Source: an uncultured Gemmatimonadaceae bacterium
Lineage (GTDB): Bacteria > Gemmatimonadota > Gemmatimonadetes > Gemmatimonadales > Gemmatimonadaceae
Length of the DNA stretch: 64,000 bases
NCBI GenBank assembly: GCA_963790305.1
Contig: CAWBOC010000003.1
Location: 122,479-186,478 of the forward strand
Direction of reading: 5' to 3'
The translations under genes were made by a program, and so were the position numbers. Below are positions 11,260 to 41,527 of this stretch, piece after piece; within the stretch, counting starts at the first letter, position 1; each line of letters starts with the position of its first letter. Below the pieces are notes generated by a model. The model did no database searches. It had not been told where the DNA came from and saw nothing but the letters and a program-made list of their open reading frames with translations.

Positions 11260-11485
11260 GGCGAGAAAGCTAGTGCTTGTGAAATTTTTCGCAAGCTCAT
11301 TAGAAATCCAAACCGAACAGACACCGCAGATTTGTGACCTCTCACCAAGTTTCGGTGACATTTACACTTACGCGTTACCCCAGGGTTGAAGTATCGTCCT
11401 GGTGTTGATAAGTTTGCCGGCTCTTCCGCCACCGACGCGACCGGTGGCCACCGACCCGGCCCTCTTCTGTCCCCGTCCGTTGACA

Positions 11486-25890: not shown

Positions 25891-26136
25891 TTAGGCCGGG
25901 ATCGCGAGATGGCCGTTCAGCCGTTCCTCGCAGCTCCGATCGACGCGATCGTGGCGTGCGTGCTTCGCTTCGATTTCGGCGAAGCGCCCTTGCATCGAGG
26001 CCATGTCGGCAGCGAGCGTGTTGAGGTCGTCGTCTCCCATGTGCCGGCAGACGGGGCGAAGACGGCTCGCGATGTCGGCGGCGCGTGATTCTATCGATCT
26101 GCCGTGCGGGCTGGCGCGGCGGTCGGTGCGGGACAT
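25891..26136 (-). CDS. Hypothetical small helical protein
   Basis: From MSRTDRR within ORF 25891..26295(-). It is on the same strand as the small-protein paralog P1 and downstream of it. No family recognised. Confidence 0.3.
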   Translation of the reverse strand: MSRTDRRASPHGRSIESRAADIASRLRPVCRHMGDDDLNTLAADMASMQGRFAEIEAKHARHDRVDRSCEERLNGHLAIPA

Positions 26137-26257
26137 TGGTAACGGCGTGAGCGACGGTTGGACAGCGGTTCGACAGCTCGCGGATGCGCAGGGTCCATGC
26201 CTCAGGCCACCCCTATCGTCACTTAACCTCGTTGCGTACAAGGCGTTCGCTTTTCCG

Positions 26258-26521
26258 CTATCCCGGGAAGCGAGGCCACATGCCACTCTCTCCACGCTCG
26301 CGGACGAACAGCGCCTGTCGACAGAGCTTGTGCAGTGCCTCGGCGGGGAGCTCCAGCCAATCTGGAGGGATGGGCGCGAGACGCCGTTTCTCCCAGGATG
26401 ACTCGAACGCCAACCAGCCCTCAGCGAGCTCCGGCAGGACGGGACGCGTTCCGACTCGCGGATACACCTCCCACACCGCCCACCGTCGGCCCTGCAGATC
26501 GGTGAATTCCCTGTGCGCCAC
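26258..26521 (-). CDS. Small conserved protein, paralog P1 of an unassigned family (W-x-V-W ... GWL-x-FE ... EKRRLAP-x-P)
   Basis: Within ORF 26258..26593(-). A GTG preceded by GAGGAG gives (M)AHREFTDLQGRRWAVWEVYPR...LPELAEGWLAFESSWEKRRLAPIPPDWLELPAEALHKLCRQA, which aligns along its length with the proteins at 26664 and 37687. Confidence 0.6.
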   Translation of the reverse strand: MAHREFTDLQGRRWAVWEVYPRVGTRPVLPELAEGWLAFESSWEKRRLAPIPPDWLELPAEALHKLCRQALFVRERGESGMWPRFPG

Positions 26522-26574
26522 GGCCTGGGCTCCTCGTGAGATCACCGAGCGAGGAAAACTGCACAATGGGTGCC

Positions 26575-26596
26575 TATATGTGATGTAGATCACATT
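26575..26596. promoter_or_regulatory. Near-consensus CRP/cAMP-receptor-type palindrome (TGTGA-N6-TCACA) in a divergent promoter region
   Basis: ATATGTGATGTAGATCACATTT compared with the textbook ideal AAATGTGATCTAGATCACATTT. It is centred about 65 nt upstream of the P1 start and about 78 nt upstream of the P2 start. Confidence 0.6.
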
Positions 26597-26663
26597 TTGG
26601 CCGTGAGGGATAGGACGCGATTCGAGTGATGAGGCGCGTCGCTTGCGGACCCAGCGGCCCCCT

Positions 26664-26942
26664 ATGGCCTATGCGGAGTTCACGGATCGAGTGGGAAAAC
26701 AGTGGCGAGTGTGGCACACGCGCCCGCTGTCCGCGGCGCTCACGACCCTTCCGGAGGCCTGGAAGGAGGGCTGGCTCACCTTCGAGTCGGGGGACGAAAA
26801 ACGACGGCTCGCGCCCGTTCCCGCGGGATGGGAACACCTGACTCCAGAGCAACTCGAGATGCTATGCCAGGTGGCGGAGCCGACCGCCCTCTCTCCGCGC
26901 GCGCACGATCCGCTGCGGCGCGACGAGCGGAGCGCGGAATAG
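26664..26942 (+). CDS. Small conserved protein, paralog P2 of the same unassigned family
   Basis: From MAYAEF within ORF 26643..26942: MAYAEFTDRVGKQWRVWHTRP...LPEAWKEGWLTFESGDEKRRLAPVPAGWEHLTPEQLEMLCQVAEP. Confidence 0.65.
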   Translation: MAYAEFTDRVGKQWRVWHTRPLSAALTTLPEAWKEGWLTFESGDEKRRLAPVPAGWEHLTPEQLEMLCQVAEPTALSPRAHDPLRRDERSAE

Positions 26943-27260
26943 ATGCGCGAGCACGAGAAGCCGGATCGGAGGAACTCTCCGCTCATTCTCATCTTCGAGC
27001 ACCGCGTCTACTTCCGGGATCACGCGGGCGAGCACTGGCGCGTGTACGACATCTTCGTCGCGCCTGACGAGCGCGGCCGTGAGCGGCGCTTCCCCGTGAT
27101 GCCGCCGGACAAGCGCGCGGTGCATCGCGAGTTCATCGCGCGGTCGGGAGAGCGACGCGAGTACACGTTCCTCGCTGACTCCCTGCGGGGGATGCCGCTC
27201 TTCGTTCACCAGCTTGCTCGCCAACTGGGCCTCGCGAAGATCGTCCACGAGAAGAAATAG
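26943..27260 (+). CDS. Small hypothetical protein, possibly a distant relative of the P family
   Basis: Intact 105-aa ORF starting immediately after the P2 stop codon (no gap), reading VYFRDHAGEHWRVYDIF...ERRFPVMPP...LFVHQLARQL. This echoes the F-x-D-x-x-G-x-x-WRV(W/Y) and RR(L/F)-x-P motifs of P1-P3. Confidence 0.5.
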   Translation: MREHEKPDRRNSPLILIFEHRVYFRDHAGEHWRVYDIFVAPDERGRERRFPVMPPDKRAVHREFIARSGERREYTFLADSLRGMPLFVHQLARQLGLAKIVHEKK

Positions 27261-28373: not shown

Positions 28374-31300
28374 ATGATACGCGTGCGAACGTTGGGTCAC
28401 AGCGTGATCCAGATCGACTCGACGCCGGTCGGTCCTGACGCCGAGATCGTCTTCGCCGCACTCCTGCTGCTGACCGTCGAGCCGGGCAAGCGCCTCGGAC
28501 GCGGCGAGCTGTTAGGCATCCTGTGGCCGGAGGCGACGGGATCCCGCGCTGCCCATTGTCTCCGCCAGACGATCTACCGGTTGCGCACGCTCGGCGTGCC
28601 GCTGGAGGTGAGTCGCACCCATCTCAGCGTCTCGTCGGAGGTAGTGGATTGCGATGTCGATGCGATCCTTCGACATTCGACGGGTGGAGGATGTCGAACG
28701 CATTGCTGACGACATCGATGGACCGTTTCTCCCTGGCTACTGGCCGAGTTTCTCGGAGCGACTTCAAGAATGGGTGGAGCGTCATCGCGACCTCGTCACG
28801 GCGAGCGCGCGACGCGTGTTGGTCAGCGCGATCGCGACCCGCAAGGCTCGCGCGGAATGGAGTGAGGTCGAGCGCCTGGCGCATCGCTGCCTCGCCATCG
28901 ATCCATTGAACGAGGACGCCACCCTGGCGCTGGCGGAGGCGGCGGCGCTTCACGGGGGGAAGGTCGAAGCGATTGGCATCCTCGATCGATATCTGCACGA
29001 GATGGGGCCGACGGCGCGTGAGCTGCGCCTCCCTGCGATGGCGCTCCGCCGGCGGATCGCCGAGCCCGAGCTGGAGTTCCCGCTCGCTCCGCCGCTCCAT
29101 GTGCCGTTCGTGGGTCGCAGCGCCGAGATGGGCATACTGACCGGCGCGCTTCGCAGCGCGCGGGGGGGCGCCGGGAGCGTCCACTTCATTCACGGGGAGC
29201 CTGGGATCGGCAAGACCAGACTCCTCACCGAGTTCTCGCGTGCGGCGTCGCTCGAGGGTGCGCGCATTGCTGCCGCGCTATGTCAGTCCAGCGACGCGCG
29301 ACGCCCGCTGTCCGCGTTCGTCGATCTGGTGCCGAGGCTCATGACGATGCCGGGCGCGCTAGGGTGTAGTCCGCAATCGCACAGGTATCTCCGGCGCTTC
29401 ATCGAACACCATTCCGGTGGCTCGCCTCCCACGCCGGATGTGCCGAAGCTGCCTTTCTCTATACGAACGTGCGCGGTCGCTCTTCGATCTGTTCGATGCA
29501 ATCGCTTCCGAAACTGTTCTGGTCGTGTCGATTGAAGATGTTCAGTGGCTCGACGCGGCATCGTGGGAGATAATCGGTGAAACCGGCTCTTGGCTCCAGA
29601 CGCGGCGCACTCTCCTCCTGCTAACATCGCGTGAACGAGAACCACAGGCATCGGAATCACGGGCCTTCTGCAGTCGCAACGTCTCTTCCCTATGGCTCGC
29701 ACCGTTCGCTCGGCCAGAAAGTGAGCGTCTCTTCGCAGCAACCCTAGGCGAAGAGACGCAGAAAGTCTCCGCTTCCTTCCGCGATTGGTGCGTCACTATG
29801 AGCGGCGGGAATCCTTACTACCTCTCGGAGCTCGCCCTGCACAGCCCCAAGCGCCGAGGTGAGTTTGTGGTCCCTCCAGTTTGTCGGCTTTAGTGGCAGA
29901 AAGGGTAGCGCGTCTTCGACCGGTATCATGTCGAGTTCTACAGGCGTGTGCGATACTCGGTAGAGATGCCACAGTTGATCGAGTCGAAAGCATGCTCGCG
30001 CAACGACGCATTGACCTACTTGACGCACTTGATGAGCTTGACGAACACGCACTTATCGCCTGGAACGGGTCCCAGATCGTTAGTCGCCATGACCTCCTTT
30101 CCCAAGCTGCGATCGCTCGACTCTCTCCGCTATCCCGAAAATTGCTGCACCAGCATGCCGCATTGGTCCTCGAAGGCGAAGTATCGTCGGGTAGCACACC
30201 CGCCGTGGTTTGGTCTTCTGCTGAGCACTGGGCGGAGGCCGGTCTCCCTGAGCGAGGGATTGCGCTGGTGTGCAAGTGCGCGCGTCAGGCTATTGAGCTT
30301 GGCCAGCCCCAAGAAGCTGTTGAGCTACTCCGCCGCACAAAGGACCTACCGTTAGCTGATCGGGAACGCCTCAGCGTTCTTACAGAGTTGATTTACGCAT
30401 ACAGGGCGGCTGACCGGTGGCAGGACGCCACGAGGGAGTTTGCTGACCTTCGCTCCCTGCGTCGTCGTGTTTGTGCAGGAGAATCCGGTGTTCACGACGA
30501 CATCGAATTGATTGGGATCGAATCTCAGTGGCTCGGAGGGTTCAGCCCTGAAACGATCATCGCTCAGTTACTCCAATGTTGTCGGTCAAGTGAGACGACA
30601 TTCGAGCCACCGAATAGCCGCCGCCAAACTTTGTCTTATTATCTCAGACAACGTGCGTGATTGCGCAACTGCGATAGAGGCATTCGAACTTGTAAGGCAC
30701 GATCTGCAAATTGAAGCTATCCCGACAGTGGAAGGCATCGAGGCCCGTCTGATCTTTGAGACCTCGTTTGGGGATCGTGCGGCAGCGAAGAGCACCGTCG
30801 ACAGGCTTCTGCAGGCCGATTGGCAGTCGTCTCGAAGACAGGCCTTTAGCCTAATCCTCGCGGCACACGCATGCGAGCGATTAGGAATGCCGGGGCGCGT
30901 GACACAGGTCGCGACCGAAGCATATCGACTTGGAGTTGAGTCCTCCTGCGCGACCGCCGCAGCCGCTGCCGCACGAAAACTCGCGTGGGCTTATTTGGAC
31001 GAGGGAGACCAAGAGCAGGCTGAGCATTGGTATAAACTTGCCCTGGGTTGGGTACAAAAGGGGCAACTCTCCAGCTTTACCGCAGATTTGCTTGGGCTTC
31101 ACGCAGAACTACTGATTGGCCGTGAAGACTACGCCGGCGCCAGCGAAGCGTTAGAGAAGTCGCAAGAGGCTTGGCACCGAACCGTTCACGCCAGGTGGAA
31201 ACTGAGCGTTCTTTCGGCGCGTTCCGCGATTTGGCTCGCCACCGGCGCGCGAAGCAGCTGTGAAGTCGCGGCGAGTGAGTACGGAGAGTTACTGAGCCGA

Positions 31301-31555
31301 CTGCATCACGAGGAGGGGAACGACCTATTTGCGGCGCGATACTTCCTGCTACTCGCCGGCATTGGTCGACGCTATGAAGCAGAGGTGGAAATGCGGAAAT
31401 ACCTCGCGTCACGGACTAAATCGCCCGTTCAGTACAGCCCGACTCTGAAGGCGGTCATACGACAGTTTTCGCCGAGCGGCACGGAGGATCCTGCGACTAG
31501 CGGCTACCTACTTTCCGAAGTCGACCTGACGTCGCCATCACCACCCGTGAGCTGA
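28374..31555 (+). pseudogene. SARP/BTAD - AAA(P-loop) - TPR STAND-type transcriptional regulator (about 1060 aa), about four frame breaks as assembled
   Basis: ORFs 28332..28709 (winged-helix: ELLGILWPEATGSRAAHCLRQTIYRLR), 28654..29535 (BTAD helices; VGRSAEMGILT...FIHGEPGIGKTRLL), 29417..29893 (VLVVSIEDVQWLD; GGNPYYLSELA), 29881..30660 and 30512..31555 (TPR-like helical repeats) read through as one protein. Confidence 0.7.
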
Positions 31556-33006
31556 TGGGCGTCGGTTCCCTCTGTTCTGGCACAAAGAGGAGTGACCAGA
31601 GTGGGCTCGCCAATAACCGATCGCAAATCATGGGATCAAACTGGCGGGCCCGTTGCCGAATGAACTCGGACCGCACCTCCGGCTCGCCTCTGGCTTGACG
31701 GTATGGTCGATCCGTTGTCATCGCGTCTATAGTATCCGCGAACATGATGATTCGAGACTCAAGCGGTATATCCTCTCCCGCCAGACCGTCCGGGTAGCCC
31801 GATACCGTCCCAATTCTCGTGATGGTGGCGCAACGGAGCGACCAAGTCGCGCAGATTGCTCACGGTCGCCACGAACTCCGCACTCCGAATGGGATGGGTC
31901 TGCATGATGGCCCATTCGTCAGGCGTAAGCTTATCCGGCTTGCTCAGAATCGGCGCGTACATTTCGTGAATCTTGCCGACATCGTGCAGTAGAGCAGCCG
32001 TTCCAACGCGCTCGATCCGTCGTGTCGTAAGCCCGATGGCGCGCGCAATAATCTTCGAGTAGTGCGCGACCCGCATCGAGTGACCGGAGGTGTACGGATC
32101 CCGCGCCTCGATTGCCTTAACCATCAATTGCAGCAGTTCTTGGTTCACCTGTTCAAGTTTTGCTGTCGTACTGTAAAGCTGTCGGACGCCTAATAGCGGG
32201 ATCGCTAGGCAGACTGCTCCGAGCGGGCCAGTGCGAGCAAAAGCCCAGGCAAGCAGCAGAACCACAGGCGCTGCTAGGACGTCGTAGACAAGGGAGTGAA
32301 GAGTATTCTTGCGCCAGACACGCAGAATGCGACTTGCCTTCACTTACTGCGATCGCGCCGCTTACCGACAACGTATTCACAGCAAAGAAGACGACCGTGA
32401 GCAGGAGGAACGGAATCCCGAATCCCGACGCATCGTACGCAAGCTCTTCTAAGGGCGCTCGCAGAATCGATTCACCACCGAATGCCAAATAGCACAGTGT
32501 ACCAAGGGCGGTCGCCAAGGACATTTGCGCAACGTTGAAGACGCGCCTTGAGCAAGGGGCGCTGGCTGAGTACCTCGGCGATGACGTACGCGAGGGCCAC
32601 CGATACGGCGCTCGTCCAGTGGGGAGCGACGAGAACCAAGCGCCAAGAAAGGAATAAATGCGATCGTCCCTCCCGCGCCCTGCGGAAGGGAGAAGAGCAT
32701 CATTTGCGCCAGAATTCCCAGCCCGGATAGCCAAAGCGCGGCGCCGACGTGCGCAAACGACATTCCGGCCGATACGCGTAGAGCGCAACGACCGCGAGCG
32801 ACTGCCAGCAGACAATTGATACCGACGTACTGCTGTATTCTGATCGCATAGAAGCTGGGACCCCCGTCCCCGACTGCTAGATCCACATCTGCGAGCCACC
32901 GGAAAACACAAACTTCATCAAACCACTCACGAGCCCGGCCAAGAACTCCATGGTGCGTCACCTCCCTCAGGATAAGTCGCACCGGCATCCGCCGAATGCG
33001 CTCCAA
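31497..33006 (-). pseudogene. Membrane-anchored HD-GYP-domain phosphodiesterase, at least three frame breaks as assembled
   Basis: ORFs 32449..33006 and 32153..32911 give the TM helices. ORF 31759..32343 gives DPYTSGHSMRVAHYS...ALLHDVGKI...HHENWDGIG. Removing one G from a GGG run near 31798-31800 gives GIGYPDGLAGEDIPLESRIIMFADTIDAMTTDRPYR, continuous with ORF 31497..31745. Confidence 0.75.
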
Positions 33007-34055: not shown

Positions 34056-35725
34056 CTACAGGAGGGACGACAAGGCGGGAGCGGCGCGAAGCCGCCGAGT
34101 CAGCAGAACCGGTTCACGCTCGGGACGACGGGCGTTTTCGGCACGGGCCAATATGAGATACAAGGCTCGCGAAATCAAGGAACTACGTTCCTCCGGCACA
34201 TTATACTCTCTCAACTTTCTGTAGAGCGTGCGCTCGCCGATCGCCAGCATCTCTGCGGCCTTTCTTCGGTTTCCACGCGCACGCCGCCAGCGCCTGCCTG
34301 ATCGCGGCACTGCTCGATCTCTTCCATCGTCATCCCCGGCGCGATCTGGATGACGTCCGAGGGCTGCTCGCGGTGCCTCGATGGCGTGCTGAGCTGCCGA
34401 GCTGCGAACTGCGGAGCTTTGTACGTCACCGATCCACTGCACCGTCCGGTTGGCGCACCTCGTCCAACCTTCTCCGCAGCTCCTCCACCTGGAGCTTCAG
34501 CTCCACCATGCTGCGGACGATGAACTCCAGCTCGCGCCCGGCTACGCCCTCGGTCGCGCGCAGCACCGGACCCACGTGCACCGGCAACAGACGCGGGGCT
34601 CCGCCGTCGCGGATCTCGCGCGGGATGTCCTCGGCCCCGATCTCGCGGCCGGGCGACAGCACCACCATGCTCTCCACCAGGTTGCGCAGCTCGCGCACGT
34701 TCCCCGGCCACGGAGTAGCTCGACAGGATCTGCATCGCCTCGGCCGAGATGCCCTTGAACTCCCGGCCGTGCGCCTGGGAGAACTCGCGGACGAACTTCC
34801 GCACCAGGAGCGGGATGTCCTCCGGCCGCTGGCGCAGCGGCGGCAGGTAGATGTGGAGAACGTTGAGCCGGTAGTAGAGGTCGGGACGGAAGCTTCCCTC
34901 CTCCACGTGCTCGCGCAGCGGACGGTTCGTCGCCGCCACCACCCGCACGTCCACGCGAATCGGTGAGACGCCGCCGAGGCGCATGATCTCGCGCTCCTCG
35001 AGCGCGCGGAGGAGCTTCACCTGCGTCGGTGGCGGCGCCTCGCCGATCTCGTCGAGAAAGAGCGTCCCCGTGTGCGCCAGCTCGAACCGCCCGAGCCGTC
35101 CGCTCGGCGGCTCCGGTAAACGCGCCCTTCTCGTGGCCGAACAGCTCGCTCTCGAGCAGCGTCTCGGGGAGCGCGCCGATGTTCACCGGGATGAACGGCT
35201 TCGCGCGGCGCGGGCTCAGCTGGTGGATGGCGCGCGCGACGAGCTCCTTGCCCGTCCCGCTCTCCCCCTCGATGAGCACGGTGCTCGACACCGGCGCCAT
35301 CTGCTCGATCTTGACCAGCACTTCGCGGATCGCGTCGCTCTCCCCGATCAGCCCGGTGATCTCGGCGAGACGCGCGCCGCTCGAGGATGCGCTGGATGCC
35401 GTCGAACACCTCGTTCACGTCCACCGGCTTCGTCCAGATCTCGACGTAGCCGAGCGCGCGGAGGCGATCGCGAAGCGTGGGATCGTCGAGGTCGGAGAGG
35501 CCGACGACGGCCGTCCCCTCCCACAGCTGCCGCTTCACGAGCTGCACGTTCGGCTGGTCGACGAGACCGCCGGTGAGCACGATGACGTCGGGCTTCTGCT
35601 TCTCGACGGCGGTGCGCAGGTCGTCGTACGGCGACACGACCTCGGTCTCGACGCCGGCGCGCTCGAAGCAGATTCTTGAGGCGGACCGCCGGCTCGACGT
35701 CGGTGAGGGTGATCAGGACCTTCAT
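34056..35725 (-). pseudogene. Sigma54-dependent transcriptional activator (NtrC family) with an atypical receiver domain, about five frame breaks as assembled
   Basis: MKVLITLTDVEP (tail of ORF 35348..36601), then ORF 35017..35637 (receiver-like, ...IWTKPVD), 34542..35321 (GESGTGKE Walker [11 protein letters not shown]), 34211..35020 (LFLDEIG, RVVAATN, LYYRLNV), 34426..34698 (VRELRNLVE) and 34056..34442 (Fis-type HTH: GNRRKAAEMLAIGERTLYRKLREY). Confidence 0.8.
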
Positions 35726-36365: not shown

Positions 36366-37482
36366 CTATTTATGCGCCCCTTCCTCTTGTAGAACGGCGT
36401 CTTCACCACCTCCGCCGGGACGCGCTTGCCGCGGATCTCGATCTCGATCGCCGTGCCTTCCTTCGCGGCGGCGGGCGGGAGATAGCAGGTGCCGATGGCG
36501 ATGCCTAACGTCGGGCTCACGGTCCCGCTGCGGACGAGGCCGTGCGGCTTGCCGTCGTGGAGCACCGGGTAGCCGTGGCGCGGGAAGGCCTTGTCGCGCA
36601 TGACGAAGCCCGACGAGCTTGCGCTCGAGGCCCTTCTCCTTCTGCCTGACGAGCGCCTCGCGTCCGACGAAGTCCCCCTTCTGCAGCTTCACCAGCCAGG
36701 CGAGGCCCGCCCTCGAGCGGCGTCGTCGTCGAATCGATGTCGTTGCCGTAGAGCGCGAATCCCATCTCGAGGCGCAGCGTGTCGCGCGCGCCGAGGCCGG
36801 CGGGCGTGACGTCGGTGTTCTCGGTGAGCGCGTCCCACATGCTCGCGGCGTACTCCGGGCGGAAGTAGAGCTCGAAGCCGTCTTCGCCGGTGTAGCCGGT
36901 GCGCGAGATGACGGTGGGCATCCCGGCCACCTCGCCTTCATCGAAGTGGTAGTAGGCGATGTCGCCGAGCTTCGTCTCGGTGAGCCGCGCCAGAATCTGC
37001 TCGGCCTTGGGACCCTGAAGCGCGAGGAGCGCGACGTCGTCGCTGAAATCCTCGAGCGTTACCTCGAAGCGCGACGCGTAGCGCGAGATATGCTCGAAGT
37101 CCTTTTCGCGGTTCGACGCGTTGACGACCATCATGATGCGGTCGGCGAAGCGATAGACGAGGCAGTCGTCCTCGATCGTGCCGCCCTCGTTGAGAATCGT
37201 GGAGTACTGCACCTGGCCGACCGCGAGGGCGGCGACGTCGTTCGAGGTCACGTAGTTGGTGAACGCCACCGCGTCCTTGCCCCGGACCATGAACTCGCCC
37301 ATGTGGCTCACGTCGAACAGCCCGCAGCTCTCGCGCACCGCCTTATGCTCGGCGGTAATCCCGGCCGGGTATTGCACGGGCATCTCGTAGCCGGCGAAGG
37401 GCACGAGCTTGGCGCCCAGCGCGGCGTGGATGTCGTGGAACGGGGTGTAGCGGAGGTTCTGGGAGGCAGCTGAGAGCGACAT
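36366..37482 (-). pseudogene. gcvT: Glycine cleavage system T protein (aminomethyltransferase), two frame breaks as assembled
   Basis: From MSLSAASQNLRYTPFHDIH... within ORF 36517..37740 (GLFDVSHMGEF, ISRTGYTGEDGFE, GLGARDTLRLEMG). It continues in ORF 36366..36941 (LAWLVKLQKGDFVGREAL) and the head of ORF 35348..36601 (GKPHGLVRSGTVSPTLGIAIGT...VVKTPFYKRK). The 3' end is approximate. Confidence 0.85.
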
Positions 37483-37610
37483 AGGAGCTCCGGAGCTCGG
37501 GATCGGTCGGCGGAATATGCCCGAATTGCAGGAGCACTGCCAGAAGAACCGTTCGGCGGCGGGATTCCCCCTTCTCTCGGCCTTGACCAAACGGCGTGCC
37601 CATTGGCGCT

Positions 37611-37640
37611 GATCACATTTGTGATTGGGCCTATATCGCG
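37611..37640. promoter_or_regulatory. Motif cluster shared with the P1/P2 control region (GATCACATTT, GTGAT, GCCTATAT), and a possible promoter of P3
   Basis: GATCACATTTGTGATTGGGCCTATATCGCG. The same three words occur at 26571-26597 in a different order. TGATCA-N16-TATATC is a plausible -35/-10 pair about 50 nt upstream of the P3 ATG. Confidence 0.4.
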
Positions 37641-37686
37641 GTGTGGATAAGGTCGGGCGCACCCTTTGCGCATTGGGGACGGGAGT

Positions 37687-37968
37687 ATGGCCTACGCCGA
37701 GTTCCCCGATCGAGAAGGCAGGTCCTGGCGAGTGTGGCACACTCGCCCCCGGCTCGCGGACGTTCTCTCCCGGCTGCCTCTGGACTGGAAGGGCGGGTGG
37801 CTGACCTTCGAGTGCGAGGGCGAGAAGCGGCGGCTCGCACCCGTTCCGCCCGGATGGGAAGACTTTTCGCCGGCACGCCTCGATCTGCTACGACGTATGG
37901 CGGAGCCGACGACCACGGGGGCGATCGCCAGAGACGTTCTCCGCCGCGAGGAGCAGCAGCGGCGATAG
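37687..37968 (+). CDS. Small conserved protein, paralog P3 of the unassigned family
   Basis: From MAYAEF (GGGAG RBS) within ORF 37666..37968: MAYAEFPDREGRSWRVWHTRP...LPLDWKGGWLTFECEGEKRRLAPVPPGWEDFSPARLDLLRRMAEP. Confidence 0.65.
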   Translation: MAYAEFPDREGRSWRVWHTRPRLADVLSRLPLDWKGGWLTFECEGEKRRLAPVPPGWEDFSPARLDLLRRMAEPTTTGAIARDVLRREEQQRR

Positions 37969-37985: not shown

Positions 37986-38201
37986 TTAGGCTGAGCGGCG
38001 CTCGGCGCGCGAGGCGATCGCGTCCCCGCAATGTCCCGCGCTCACGGTCACGGCGATGCCCTGCCTCTCGAGCAGCGACAGGACGCGAGCCGCGTCCTCG
38101 CCGCTCGCCATCTTCGCCGATAGGAGCACTTCGTAGGCGGAAGTGAGCCGGCCATCGCCGAGCGCCGCTTCGAGCGCGGCGAGGGAGGAATACTGGGGCA
38201 T
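37986..38201 (-). CDS. Small protein resembling sigma-70 region 1.1
   Basis: From MPQYSS (GGAGGG RBS) within ORF 37986..38354(-). LEAALGDGRLTSAYEVLLSAKMASGEDAARVLSLLERQGIAVTV follows the G-x-LT-x-x-EV...GI-x-V pattern of RpoD N-termini. The assignment is tentative. Confidence 0.35.
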   Translation of the reverse strand: MPQYSSLAALEAALGDGRLTSAYEVLLSAKMASGEDAARVLSLLERQGIAVTVSAGHCGDAIASRAERRSA

Positions 38202-38379: not shown

Positions 38380-38712
38380 GTGAGAGACTCGCCTCAGCCA
38401 TCGTCAGAAGCGGACGCCACCAATGGCGTCCCGCGGTGCGAGCCTCAGATCGAGGATGAAATGGTCATCCTCGAGGAGGTGAACGCATTCGTCAAATCAG
38501 CGGGTGCCGATTTGCAGGCGTTGCACGCGGCCGTCACCCGCTTCGTCGTGCATTGTCGGGATCGCGGCGAGCAGATCGAGCGCATCATCACCACGCTCAA
38601 GACGATCATCGCCGGAGCCGTGCGAGGGGATGCCGACGTCCGAGCCGTGAACGCGATCAATCAGCACCTGCTCGGCTGGGTGCTCGACGCCTTTTACACT
38701 CGAGAGCGCTGA
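38380..38712 (+). CDS. Hypothetical small helical protein
   Basis: 110-aa ORF. A better start may be the ATG at 38461 (GAGGA RBS). No family recognised. Confidence 0.35.
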   Translation: MRDSPQPSSEADATNGVPRCEPQIEDEMVILEEVNAFVKSAGADLQALHAAVTRFVVHCRDRGEQIERIITTLKTIIAGAVRGDADVRAVNAINQHLLGWVLDAFYTRER

Positions 38713-39245: not shown

Positions 39246-41527
39246 CGTGACCACCGGAGTCCAGCATAGATCGCGCGGCGGTCGGCCGGCTCGAAGAAGC
39301 GGCCGGCGGCGTTGTCCACCTGTACTGACGCCGAGTAGCGGCGGTCGAGCAGGTTGCGCCCCTCGACGAACGCGGTGAACCCCGCGCGTGCGCTGCTCCA
39401 CTCTGTGCGAAGGCCCAGCGTCACCCAGCCGTCGTTTTTCATCGTGTTTTCGCTGTTCATGTCGTAGGCCGAAGGAACCCACTCGACCTGCGGCACGATC
39501 GACAGGCCCGTCGCCGGCTCGAGCTTCAGCTCGCCCGCGAGGTGATGCGCCGGAGCGCCCGGGATGTCGTTGCCTCCGAACGTCGAGTCATCGACATACG
39601 TGAACTTCGCGAACGTGTAAGCGATTCGGGTGCGGACTCCGCCGGTGAGCTGGTAGCCGAATCCCGCCTCGAGCCCGCTGTGGCGCGTCCGCGCCGCGTT
39701 GCGATACGAAGGCACCGTGAACGTGGCGCCTGGAAATGGCCTCACGTTGATGTTGAGGATCTCGTCGCGCAGCTCAATGTCGAAGAGCGAAAGCTCCCAG
39801 GTGAGCGCAGAGCTCCGGCCGCGAGCGCCGAGCTCGAGCTGCCAGGCATCCTGCGCGTCGAGATCGATGAAGCCGCCGGGGTTACCGAAGCTCGCCAGCT
39901 CGAGGAGCAATGGCGGCTCGACGGTGCGGCTCACGTTGGCGAACACGCTCCCGCGCAGTGAGGGAACGTCGTACAACACCCCGACCCGTGGCGCGACCGG
40001 TGTGAAGACGCGACGGTCGGATTGATCGCCATTGCCGAGGAATCGGTCGGCGACGGTGCGCCGCGAATAGTCGAATCGCGCTCCGAGAACCGCCGTGAGA
40101 CGATCGGTGATTCCGATCGCGTCCTCGAGGTAGATGCCGAGATTGGCGACTTTGTCCTTCTCGTCGCGTGTCGGAGCGCCGTGCTCTCCGCGCACGTTCT
40201 GAAACTGCCGGTTGTCCATGTCCTGCCACGCCGGCTGCACGCCGAGCGTGAGGCGGTGCTCACGTCCAGCAATCGGGGTCATGTTCTCGTAGCGAAGCTC
40301 GACGCCAACATCGCGACTCAGCTGCGCGATCACCTCGAAAATGGGATGATCGATGTCGCGATACTGGAGGTACGGACTCACCTCGAGCCGCTGCGTCGGC
40401 GTAAGCTGTGCTCGCAGCTGTGCGCCTAAGTGGTGCAGGTCGTAGTCGCGACCCCAGCGGTTGGTCACGTTGTTGGCGACCGCCTGCTCGGGACGCGCGT
40501 CGAGCTCGGCGCGTGTCAGCGCGCCGGGCAAATGCTCTCGAACGCGCGCAAAGAAGTAGAACGCTCGCGCGTCGAGGGTATTGGTGAGACGGTGCCCCGC
40601 ATGCACGTTCACGCGGTCGCGCCGCTGATCCGACCAGTCGCGGTAGCCGTCGAGCTCCGTGCGTGCGTAGCTCGCGTAGTAGTTGAAGTCGCCGAGGACC
40701 GCGCCCGACGAGAGCTGCGCCTTGTAGAAGCCGAATGCCCCGCCCTGCGCAAACAACGAGAACGGCCGGGAGGTATGGCCGGTCTTGGTGTTGATGCTGA
40801 TGGCGCCGCCGAGCGTGGACCCGCCGTAGCGGAGCGCGTTGGCTCCCTTGTAGACCTCGATCGCTTCGGCGGTGAGGAGCTCGAGGGACTCGAAGTCGGT
40901 GAAGCCGTCAGCGTTGCGATACGGCATGCCGTTCACGAGCAGGTTGATGCCGCGCGCGTGGAAGTTGTTGCGCAAACCGGAGCCGCGCACGGAGATCTGA
41001 CTCTCGTCGGCGGCGCCGAAGCGCGGCTGTACGTACACTCCGGGTGTGAAGCTCAACACATCCTTGAGGTTCGCCTGTCGCGTCGAGCGAATCTCCTCCG
41101 GAGGCACGAGCGAGACCGCACCGGGTACGCGAGCCATTCGCGCCCGAGTGTCGGCGATGTCGGAGCGGCTGCCAATGACGGTCACGGCGGCCAGGGTGGC
41201 GACGTCGGGTGCGAGTACGATGTCGACGGTGGTGACGACATCGCTGGCGACGTCAATGGTGCGACTGGAGGCGACGTACCCGACGCGAAGCGCCTGGATC
41301 GCATGCACGCCCGGCGGAACGTTCTCGATGCGGAACGCGCCGGCGGTATCGGTTTGGGCGACGGGGCTCGCCCCGTCGATCGAGATGAATGCGCCGACGA
41401 TGGGAGTCGCCGAATCCGCGGACAGCACGCGACCAGCGATCGCGGTCGCTGCCTGGGCCGGCAGCGACGAGGCGAAGGCGAGCGTCATACACCCCATGAC
41501 GCCCAGGAACACACAATGGACGGACAT
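39242..41527 (-). CDS. TonB-dependent receptor with N-terminal CarboxypepD_reg domain (possibly copper-related)
   Basis: Intact 761-aa ORF with a signal peptide, a carboxypeptidase-regulatory-like domain (GRVLSADSATPIVGAFISIDG...FRIENVPPGVHAI), a plug (IEVYKGANALRYGGSTLGGAI) and a C-terminal barrel ending ...YAGLRWSR. Confidence 0.9.
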   Translation of the reverse strand: MSVHCVFLGVMGCMTLAFASSLPAQAATAIAGRVLSADSATPIVGAFISIDGASPVAQTDTAGAFRIENVPPGVHAIQALRVGYVASSRTIDVASDVVTTVDIVLAPDVATLAAVTVIGSRSDIADTRARMARVPGAVSLVPPEEIRSTRQANLKDVLSFTPGVYVQPRFGAADESQISVRGSGLRNNFHARGINLLVNGMPYRNADGFTDFESLELLTAEAIEVYKGANALRYGGSTLGGAISINTKTGHTSRPFSLFAQGGAFGFYKAQLSSGAVLGDFNYYASYARTELDGYRDWSDQRRDRVNVHAGHRLTNTLDARAFYFFARVREHLPGALTRAELDARPEQAVANNVTNRWGRDYDLHHLGAQLRAQLTPTQRLEVSPYLQYRDIDHPIFEVIAQLSRDVGVELRYENMTPIAGREHRLTLGVQPAWQDMDNRQFQNVRGEHGAPTRDEKDKVANLGIYLEDAIGITDRLTAVLGARFDYSRRTVADRFLGNGDQSDRRVFTPVAPRVGVLYDVPSLRGSVFANVSRTVEPPLLLELASFGNPGGFIDLDAQDAWQLELGARGRSSALTWELSLFDIELRDEILNINVRPFPGATFTVPSYRNAARTRHSGLEAGFGYQLTGGVRTRIAYTFAKFTYVDDSTFGGNDIPGAPAHHLAGELKLEPATGLSIVPQVEWVPSAYDMNSENTMKNDGWVTLGLRTEWSSARAGFTAFVEGRNLLDRRYSASVQVDNAAGRFFEPADRRAIYAGLRWSR

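Follow-up and report, generated by a model that had tools for sequence, protein, structure and literature searches.

Sigma-54 regulons in which an enhancer-binding protein is accompanied by small feedback partners are represented by the PspF/PspA and HrpRS/HrpV systems. Sigma-54 promoters have the geometry GG-N10-GC, in the form TGGCAC-N5-TTGC, with GG at -24 and GC at -12. In Deinococcus, the radiation/desiccation response regulon places lineage-specific Ddr and Ppr proteins behind a common palindromic motif. Here we describe a 64-kb stretch of DNA from an uncultured Gemmatimonadaceae bacterium (contig CAWBOC010000003.1; hereafter the window), which carries three members, P1, P2 and P3, of a very large and unnamed family of small proteins. 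Gemmatimonadota are among the most abundant soil phyla and have barely been studied genetically. The control regions of the three genes have in common a palindrome and, at fixed offsets from it, putative sigma-54 promoters. What appears to be new is this control cassette, in which, as far as the sequence tells, known parts are combined in an unusual geometry.

Three paralogs and an unnamed protein family

The three genes are as follows.

26258..26521, minus strand: P1, 87 amino acids (aa), P1 type, GTG start, tail FVRERGESGmWPRFpG; scores 87 bits against the family hidden Markov model (HMM)
26664..26942, plus strand: P2, 92 aa, P2/P3 type; orthologs 61-78% identical
37687..37968, plus strand: P3, 93 aa, P2/P3 type; 78% identical to its ortholog in related locus L003

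An earlier note on this DNA had read P1, P2 and P3 as paralogs, with P3 located 11 kb from the P1/P2 pair, and both tblastn against the window and the family HMM agree with it. P1 and P2 are 49% identical over 71 aa (E = 5e-16), P2 and P3 60% over 90 aa (E = 1e-30), and P1 and P3 45% (E = 3.5e-12); among 840 open reading frames (ORFs) of the window (stop-to-stop, at least 45 aa) only these three match the HMM at 87-99 bits. The P1-type genes of L001 and L003 share 67-69% identity with window P1. P1, P2 and P3 are thus true paralogs and real genes, not chance ORFs. The idea that they are spurious ORFs has in its favour nothing but the high GC content of the window, which is GC-rich throughout (58-70%). 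It is contradicted by thousands of homologs with conserved residues, by the conservation of synteny and start codons, by a GC content per codon position in all three that matches the real genes of the same genome, and by the confident structure prediction for P2. The earlier note had already thought it improbable; we regard it as refuted and give it virtually no credence.

A word-indexed search returned 52 relatives of P2, all of them unnamed or labelled 'hypothetical protein' and all from Gemmatimonadaceae. A profile search of 1.84 billion representatives extended the family to 2315 representatives (50% identity) at E ≤0.001, 1534 of them at E ≤1e-10, and a second search with a diverse alignment gave at least 4038 clusters at 90% identity. 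Every hit with a named organism belongs to Gemmatimonadota (Gemmatimonadaceae, Gemmatimonas, Longimicrobium, Longimicrobiaceae), and no member was found in a scan of phage contigs. The family is therefore very large, without a name, and seen so far only in soil bacteria of the Gemmatimonadota. At least five copies occur in a single metagenome-assembled genome, spread over four contigs (L006, L009 with two genes, L012 and L020). Family genes stand alone, in neighbourhoods that vary between loci.

In an alignment of 50 sequences, W14, W37, L38, F40, R48, P53 and W56 are invariant, and R4, F6, D8, G11, W17, P21, G36, R47, L64, L67 and A71 nearly so. The signature proposed from the window copies alone thus holds for the family as a whole, as the invariant or near-invariant F6, D8, G11, W14, W17, G36-W37-L38, F40, R47-R48, P53 and W56, with a helix after them. 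Strands 2 and 3 are separated by a loop that ranges from about 0 to 50 residues and frequently consists of [E/D]RR repeats; members with a loop insertion often carry RRxxxR (alignments A1 and A3; proteins P0041-P0052 and P0064-P0213). Tandem two-domain proteins, in which the first domain is canonical and the second divergent, make up 26 of 150 representatives (~17%). P1-type proteins have the C-terminal tail motif FVRERGESGxWPRFxG, P2/P3-type and tandem proteins have RREE or RRRED close to the C-terminus, and R[LFIV][LIV]E forms the C-terminal end of 36 out of 238 members. Net charges of the domain lie between -5 and +6 (median, 0; P2, -3), a spread that gives it no general nucleic-acid-binding character.

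The AlphaFold model of P2 has a mean pLDDT (predicted local distance difference test) of 79.5, with values of ~90 across most of residues 1-70. It places strands at residues 3-7, 13-19, 37-42 and 45-49 and a helix at 61-70, and leaves the tail disordered. The predicted domain of ~75 residues would thus consist of a beta-hairpin, the variable loop, a second beta-hairpin, a P-x-P-x-x-W turn and a helix, before the disordered tail. Searches for known relatives of the sequence or the model were uniformly negative. Neither Pfam nor NCBIfam gave a match at E up to 1 for P1, P2 or the neighbouring protein O3 (see below), and for P3 they gave nothing beyond a 13-bit match to HTH_20, for which the cutoff is 27. 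Nothing significant was found with PADLOC and PHROGs for P1, P2, P3, O3 and the 71-aa and 110-aa neighbours described below, and in particular neither these two resources nor Pfam found a toxin, antitoxin or defence domain in P2 or O3. Sequence-profile searches of the PDB with two alignments gave best E values of 0.35 and 1.1; Foldseek with the P2 model gave a best E of 0.52 at a template modelling (TM) score of 0.13 against the PDB, and of 0.11 at TM 0.33, to an unnamed protein, against BFVD. A scan of ten longer family members returned no significant known domain. Foldseek repeatedly gave weak hits to cereblon's Trp-cage CULT domain (TM ~0.2) and to the N-terminal domain of a DNA ligase, which were judged to be noise. 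The AbrB swapped-hairpin, AP2/ERF and Sso7d/chromo-like folds, considered as leads, were absent among the listed Foldseek and profile matches and are not put forward here. Nothing known corresponds to the family or to its predicted fold, and the earlier description of an unassigned family holds, as does the statement that P1-P3 lack PilZ motifs, a helix-turn-helix (HTH) and a metal motif.

These results bear on the possibility that the domain, like stand-alone PilZ proteins, is a small receptor that binds a nucleotide second messenger, in a pocket made up of the invariant Trp and Arg residues. Such a role would suit small, beta-rich, stand-alone proteins present in many copies and with tandem versions, the invariant W14, W37 and W56 together with R47-R48, the RRxxxR-like strings of many loop-insertion members, and the location of one member near a PilZ-containing glycosyltransferase. 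On the other hand, no PF07238 (PilZ) match was obtained, P1-P3 have neither the RxxxR loop nor the [D/N]xSxxG motif, the latter occurs in no member, and the Foldseek matches to the CULT domain are as weak as stated above. We consider a receptor function highly doubtful.

The palindrome and its adjoining promoter elements

The control sequences of the three genes in the window are these.

26561..26574, minus strand: GGCACCCATTGTGC, sigma-54-type -24/-12 element of P1; inferred start near 26549, which puts the palindrome at ~-37.5
26579..26594, no strand: TGTGATGTAGATCACA, perfect palindrome common to the divergent P1 and P2 promoters; presumed site of a dimeric regulator
26633..26646, plus strand: GGCGCGTCGCTTGC, sigma-54-type -24/-12 element of P2-O3, 46 bp from the palindrome centre; inferred start near 26658, which puts the palindrome at ~-71.5
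37602..37617, no strand: ATTGGCGCTGATCACA, decayed palindrome upstream of P3; right half intact, left half lost
37656..37669, plus strand: GGCGCACCCTTTGC, sigma-54-type -24/-12 element of P3, 46 bp from the centre of the decayed palindrome

The inferred starts assume ~12 nt past the GC, with the palindrome then at ~-37.5 for P1 and at ~-71.5 for P2 and P3. The palindrome at 26579-26594 is the sole perfect match to TGTGA-N6-TCACA in the window. With at most one mismatch, the pattern occurs 26 times in 383 kb of sequence, made up of the window and 41 non-duplicate loci, and 23 of the 26 matches lie upstream of a family gene, 48-181 bp from its start; about 0.66 matches per 64 kb would be expected by chance. 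Counted by gene, such a palindrome occurs in the 220 bp upstream of 29 of the 57 family genes. When the regions are aligned on the palindrome, conserved blocks GGCAC-N5-nTGCA and GGCGC-N5-TTGCG appear. The corresponding pattern, GGC[AG][CT]-N5-[TCG]TGC, is found upstream of 30 of the 57 family genes, compared with a measured background of 0.034 per 220-nt region.

The position of these -24/-12 elements is strongly constrained. They point into the family gene without exception, and the GG lies 46 bp from the palindrome centre in 11 of the 12 genes of the P2/P3 type. In every P1-type gene (seen in L001, L003 and L008-L011) and every 'group B' gene this distance is 12-13 bp, while that from the element to the start codon varies between 29 and 96 nt. 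The elements have the exact spacing of the sigma-54 pattern as well as the orientation toward the gene, and we infer that they are sigma-54 promoters. The common words that the earlier note had seen in the control regions are thus the palindrome and the -24/-12 elements. Because this cassette of palindrome and promoter is common to them, the family genes that carry it are probably switched on together. The proposal of a regulated multi-copy set accordingly gains from the common control sequences, and its scale changes: the set is not a local matter of three copies but extends through the phylum, with thousands of clusters.

Upstream of P3, the half of the palindrome that has been lost is the one on the side that holds the P1-type partner in relatives (compare L003, L009, L010 and L011). 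A second inverted repeat, ATCACATTTGTGAT, with its half-sites reversed, lies at 37612-37625 and overlaps the surviving right half. Elsewhere in the window, one-mismatch palindromes occur at 11278-11293 and 41045-41060, far from family genes and in a number within chance. A further -24/-12-like element, GGCATGGACCCTGC, lies at 26188-26201 on the minus strand with no adjoining palindrome, 68 nt upstream of an 80-aa ORF.

25891-26133, minus strand: 80-aa ORF just downstream of P1, without a Pfam match

The palindrome invites a classical explanation, in which a CRP/FNR protein bound to it would drive sigma-70 promoters in response to carbon or cyclic AMP (cAMP). Its 16-bp core is a perfect CRP-type box, the 16-bp TGTGA-N6-TCACA pattern recurs upstream of family genes, and with its flanks, ATATGTGATGTAGATCACATTT, it resembles the Escherichia coli CRP consensus. 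However, a simple scan found no sigma-70-like -35/-10 pair in either control region, where -24/-12 elements stand at fixed offsets instead. Nor was a CRP homolog found in the window or in those family loci that the search covered, though such a gene may lie elsewhere in the genome. The hint at cAMP or carbon control in the earlier note leaned on the CRP-like palindrome; with adjoining promoters of the sigma-54 type, and with a sigma-54 activator gene and no CRP homolog in the window, it probably follows the wrong promoter logic. We consider a classical cAMP-CRP regulon unlikely, and keep within our preferred explanation, a sigma-54-dependent set, a CRP-type protein that acts jointly with sigma-54.

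Gene order in relatives and candidate regulators

P2 is directly followed by a further gene, and the P3 locus by two more; a candidate regulator lies nearby.

26943..27260, plus strand: O3, conserved 105-aa protein, possibly a very divergent relative of the family
37986..38201, minus strand: 71-aa gene, conserved, convergent with P3, travels with the P1<>P3 locus (P1-type gene divergent from P3-type gene); no Pfam, PADLOC or PHROGs match
38380..38712, plus strand: 110-aa gene, conserved, downstream of the P3 locus, 129 aa in L003; no significant Pfam match
34191..35725, minus strand: sigma-54 enhancer-binding protein gene, split into several frames; candidate regulator of the gene set

In relatives, a P1-type gene is divergent from a P3-type gene, and after them come a convergent gene of 71 aa and one of 110-129 aa (L001, L003, L008-L011); five to seven relatives have the latter two at their P1<>P3 locus. 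The gene gcvT adjoins the pair in L009, L010, L011, L085 and L100, and the full order in L009 is activator, mogA, gcvT, P1<>P3, 71-aa gene, 110-aa gene and AraC-type regulator. The window keeps this order at 34.2-38.7 kb, minus P1 at the P3 locus, and its P1 stands opposite P2-O3 rather than opposite P3. In L040, P2-O3 occurs without P1 in the same context of beta-lactamase, cytochrome c, DinB and AAA_16 genes, and a leftward -24/-12-like element is retained beside the palindrome despite the absence of P1. The divergent pairing of P1 with P2 is thus a local variant: the pair that the earlier note reported is present, and the usual partner of a P1-type gene is a P3-type gene near gcvT. More generally, wherever a locus is long enough to judge, its P1-type gene adjoins a P2/P3-type gene, and a DNA-only scan of metagenomes independently recovered further P1<>P3 pairs, with P1-type beside P3-type genes. 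In one relative (L003 and L004), a cluster of pilin-like genes (N_methyl, GspH) and an RHS-repeat protein lie ~4-8 kb from the pair.

The stop codon of P2 (TAG, 26940-26942) abuts the ATG of O3 at 26943 with zero spacer, as had been noted earlier. O3 is conserved, with 11 clusters at 70-100% identity, and the P2-O3 pair recurs in L006, L040, L041 and L042, so that O3 is a conserved partner of P2 and the suggested two-gene module stands as a pair of genes. That both proteins are built from one small fold is no more than hinted at. Against the family HMM, O3 ranks fourth among the 840 window ORFs with 13.2 bits (E = 0.003; next ORF, 7.2 bits), and the match is confined to the N-terminal hairpin, Y-F-R-D-x-x-G-E-H-W-R-V; the echo of the family signature that had been seen in O3 therefore finds partial support, in this hairpin. 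The hhalign program gave O3 a probability of 38% over 18 columns, and its AlphaFold model is unusable (pLDDT 45). O3 is not a split-off second domain of a tandem protein, because a profile of second domains gives it 3-9 bits, a weaker score than that of the general family profile. O3 and the family may have an ancestral hairpin in common.

By tblastn, much of the split gene at 34191-35725 matches the L009 protein at 95-99% identity. That ortholog is intact at 516 aa and has the domains Sigma54_activat, AAA_lid_14 and HTH_8, with no domain assigned to its 125 N-terminal residues. Two other genes of the window are broken in a similar manner: gcvT (36383-37482, minus strand) is split over several frames and is intact, at 370 aa, in L009, and a large AAA_16 regulator (28332 to ~31500, plus strand) is frame-split and is intact, at 1054 aa, in L040. 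The broken gcvT, activator and AAA_16 genes reflect either indel errors in the assembly or pseudogenes. GC content falls to 0.58 at 30001-32000, within or just past the AAA_16 regulator, compared with ~0.66 elsewhere.

The palindrome, we infer, is bound by a dimeric HTH regulator, for which the candidates would be the activator at 34.2-35.7 kb or a protein of the CRP/FNR type. The half-sites, of five bases, and their flanks are CRP-like, and the promoter type and the nearby activator point to an enhancer-binding protein or to a CRP/FNR co-regulator of sigma-54. When metagenome contigs were scanned for the composite element (TGTGA-N6-TCACA, 4-5 bp, GGCAY-N6-TGC), at least 120 matches were obtained, and of the 80 loci that were read (L046-L125) five had a family gene downstream. 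In many of the others, the element was found upstream of unrelated conserved genes, including those for a ~207-aa protein (~15 loci), a 61-aa protein (7), PilB/MshE-N-like proteins (4) and response regulators (6). The loci that carry the cassette span a wide range of GC content, and the element is common outside Gemmatimonadota. These observations suggest a general and undescribed arrangement, in which the site of a regulator would lie directly beside a sigma-54 promoter. Activator genes lay near the cassette in six of the metagenome loci, about the chance level, and no claim is drawn from them. Our literature search returned nothing relevant on a CRP or sigma-54 regulon in Gemmatimonadota or on this palindrome beside sigma-54 promoters.

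That the cassette is not specific to the family argues against the family proteins themselves as the binder of the palindrome, that is, against a new small beta-sheet DNA-binding domain that would autoregulate its genes from a dimeric operator. In favour of autoregulation, Gemmatimonadaceae DNA has the palindrome almost solely at family genes, pairing and tandem fusions would suit a dimer on a palindrome, and the domain has a conserved K/R-R-R patch, with Arg-rich loops in some members. Yet the cassette also stands upstream of unrelated genes, in DNA of very different base composition, at loci that yielded no family member; the core domains are not basic (the median net charge is zero and that of P2 negative), and the Foldseek search of the PDB and the PDB profile searches gave no similarity to known DNA-binding folds. 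Autoregulation by the family proteins is, in our view, very unlikely.

Proposed role and comparison with known systems

The explanation that we prefer, and which we hold to be about evenly balanced between right and wrong, is that of a jointly induced set of small domains, which would associate as pairs or dimers and serve as modules for binding or as adaptors. P1, P2 and P3 would be cytoplasmic proteins of the unnamed Gemmatimonadota family. A dimeric regulator on the palindrome, together with the sigma-54 promoters, would induce the family genes jointly, and a single palindrome would serve both P1 and P2-O3. The domain may work in pairs, a more tentative step that is proposed because of the ~17% of tandem fusions, the placement of P1-type beside P2/P3-type genes and the translational coupling of P2 to O3. 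More tentatively still, the paired domains could be small modules that bind or link other molecules, their globular core being the scaffold and their tail motifs the docking sites. They might modulate the activator or another common partner, or be stress-induced effectors; they would be neither enzymes nor DNA binders.

Several points weigh against this explanation. About 40% of the family genes in the loci have neither control element. The -24 element of the P2/P3 type is GGCGC rather than the usual GGCAC, the inferred leaders of P2 and P3 are only ~6 nt long, and a palindrome at ~-37.5, as in the P1 type, is unusually near for a classical enhancer-binding protein. The activator gene is found beside the pair in no more than two loci, the only ones long enough to judge. 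In this genome the sigma-54 assignment draws on 64 kb of sequence. The biochemical role is proposed solely from architecture, and the pairing or dimerisation from tandem fusions and the arrangement of genes, the O3 model being too poor, as stated above, to contribute.

Two narrower accounts of function differ in what the proteins would do once induced. In the first, the family would represent a new fold that forms homo- or heterodimers and serves as both output and feedback arm of a sigma-54 circuit specific to Gemmatimonadota; one activator would bind the palindrome, unusually near the promoter, and turn on the entire set, and the proteins would dock by their tails to tune it or a common target. 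This goes well beyond the co-induced set itself, and we consider it decidedly unlikely in this full form. In the second, the proteins would be co-induced stress effectors without a regulatory role, for example bulk protectants, like the Ddr proteins of Deinococcus. A lineage-restricted family with many paralogs in scattered genes under one operator would be expected of such effectors, as would the lack of a known domain in the longer members that were scanned. Nothing speaks directly against them, but the strong conservation of surface residues and tail motifs suggests specific partners, and we regard pure effectors as rather improbable too.

Taken as a co-induced set of small modules, a large multi-copy family with a confidently predicted, unmatched fold and one cassette likely marks a major lineage-specific physiological response. 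The cassette offers a handle for experiments, with one operator, one promoter type and one candidate activator, and the occurrence of the palindrome beside sigma-54 promoters of unrelated genes elsewhere hints at a general, undescribed mode of sigma-54 wiring. Should the feedback account prove true, it would define a new class of small regulators and a short-range activation of sigma-54, which the metagenome scan suggests for other bacteria as well. The family also deserves its own profile entry, in place of bare 'hypothetical protein' labels.

Among known systems, CRP/FNR operators have the same core and spacing as the family palindrome and, like it, can be common to divergent genes; unlike theirs, the adjoining family promoters are not sigma-70-like, and the window has no gene of the CRP family. 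Stand-alone PilZ proteins resemble the family in being small, beta-rich and present as many stand-alone paralogs, with tandem versions and a C-terminal helix, but P1-P3 have neither the profile match nor the RxxxR and D/N-x-S-x-x-G pair, and the predicted sheet has four strands in contrast to the six-stranded PilZ barrel. The Deinococcus Ddr and Ppr proteins are likewise novel, small, phylum-restricted and encoded by scattered genes that are joined by one palindromic control element. That regulon depends on a repressor and sigma-70, whereas the family has a different operator, a different type of regulator and no homology to it. Like the PspF/PspA and HrpRS/HrpV systems, the family cassette combines -24/-12 elements that keep the GG-N10-GC spacing exactly with an inverted repeat farther upstream and a neighbouring activator gene, and its output consists of small, presumably non-enzymatic proteins. 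The family has no relation in sequence or fold to PspA or HrpV, and feedback on the activator is here conjecture only. Unlike typical enhancer sites, finally, the family palindrome lies much nearer the promoter, at ~-37.5 and ~-71.5.

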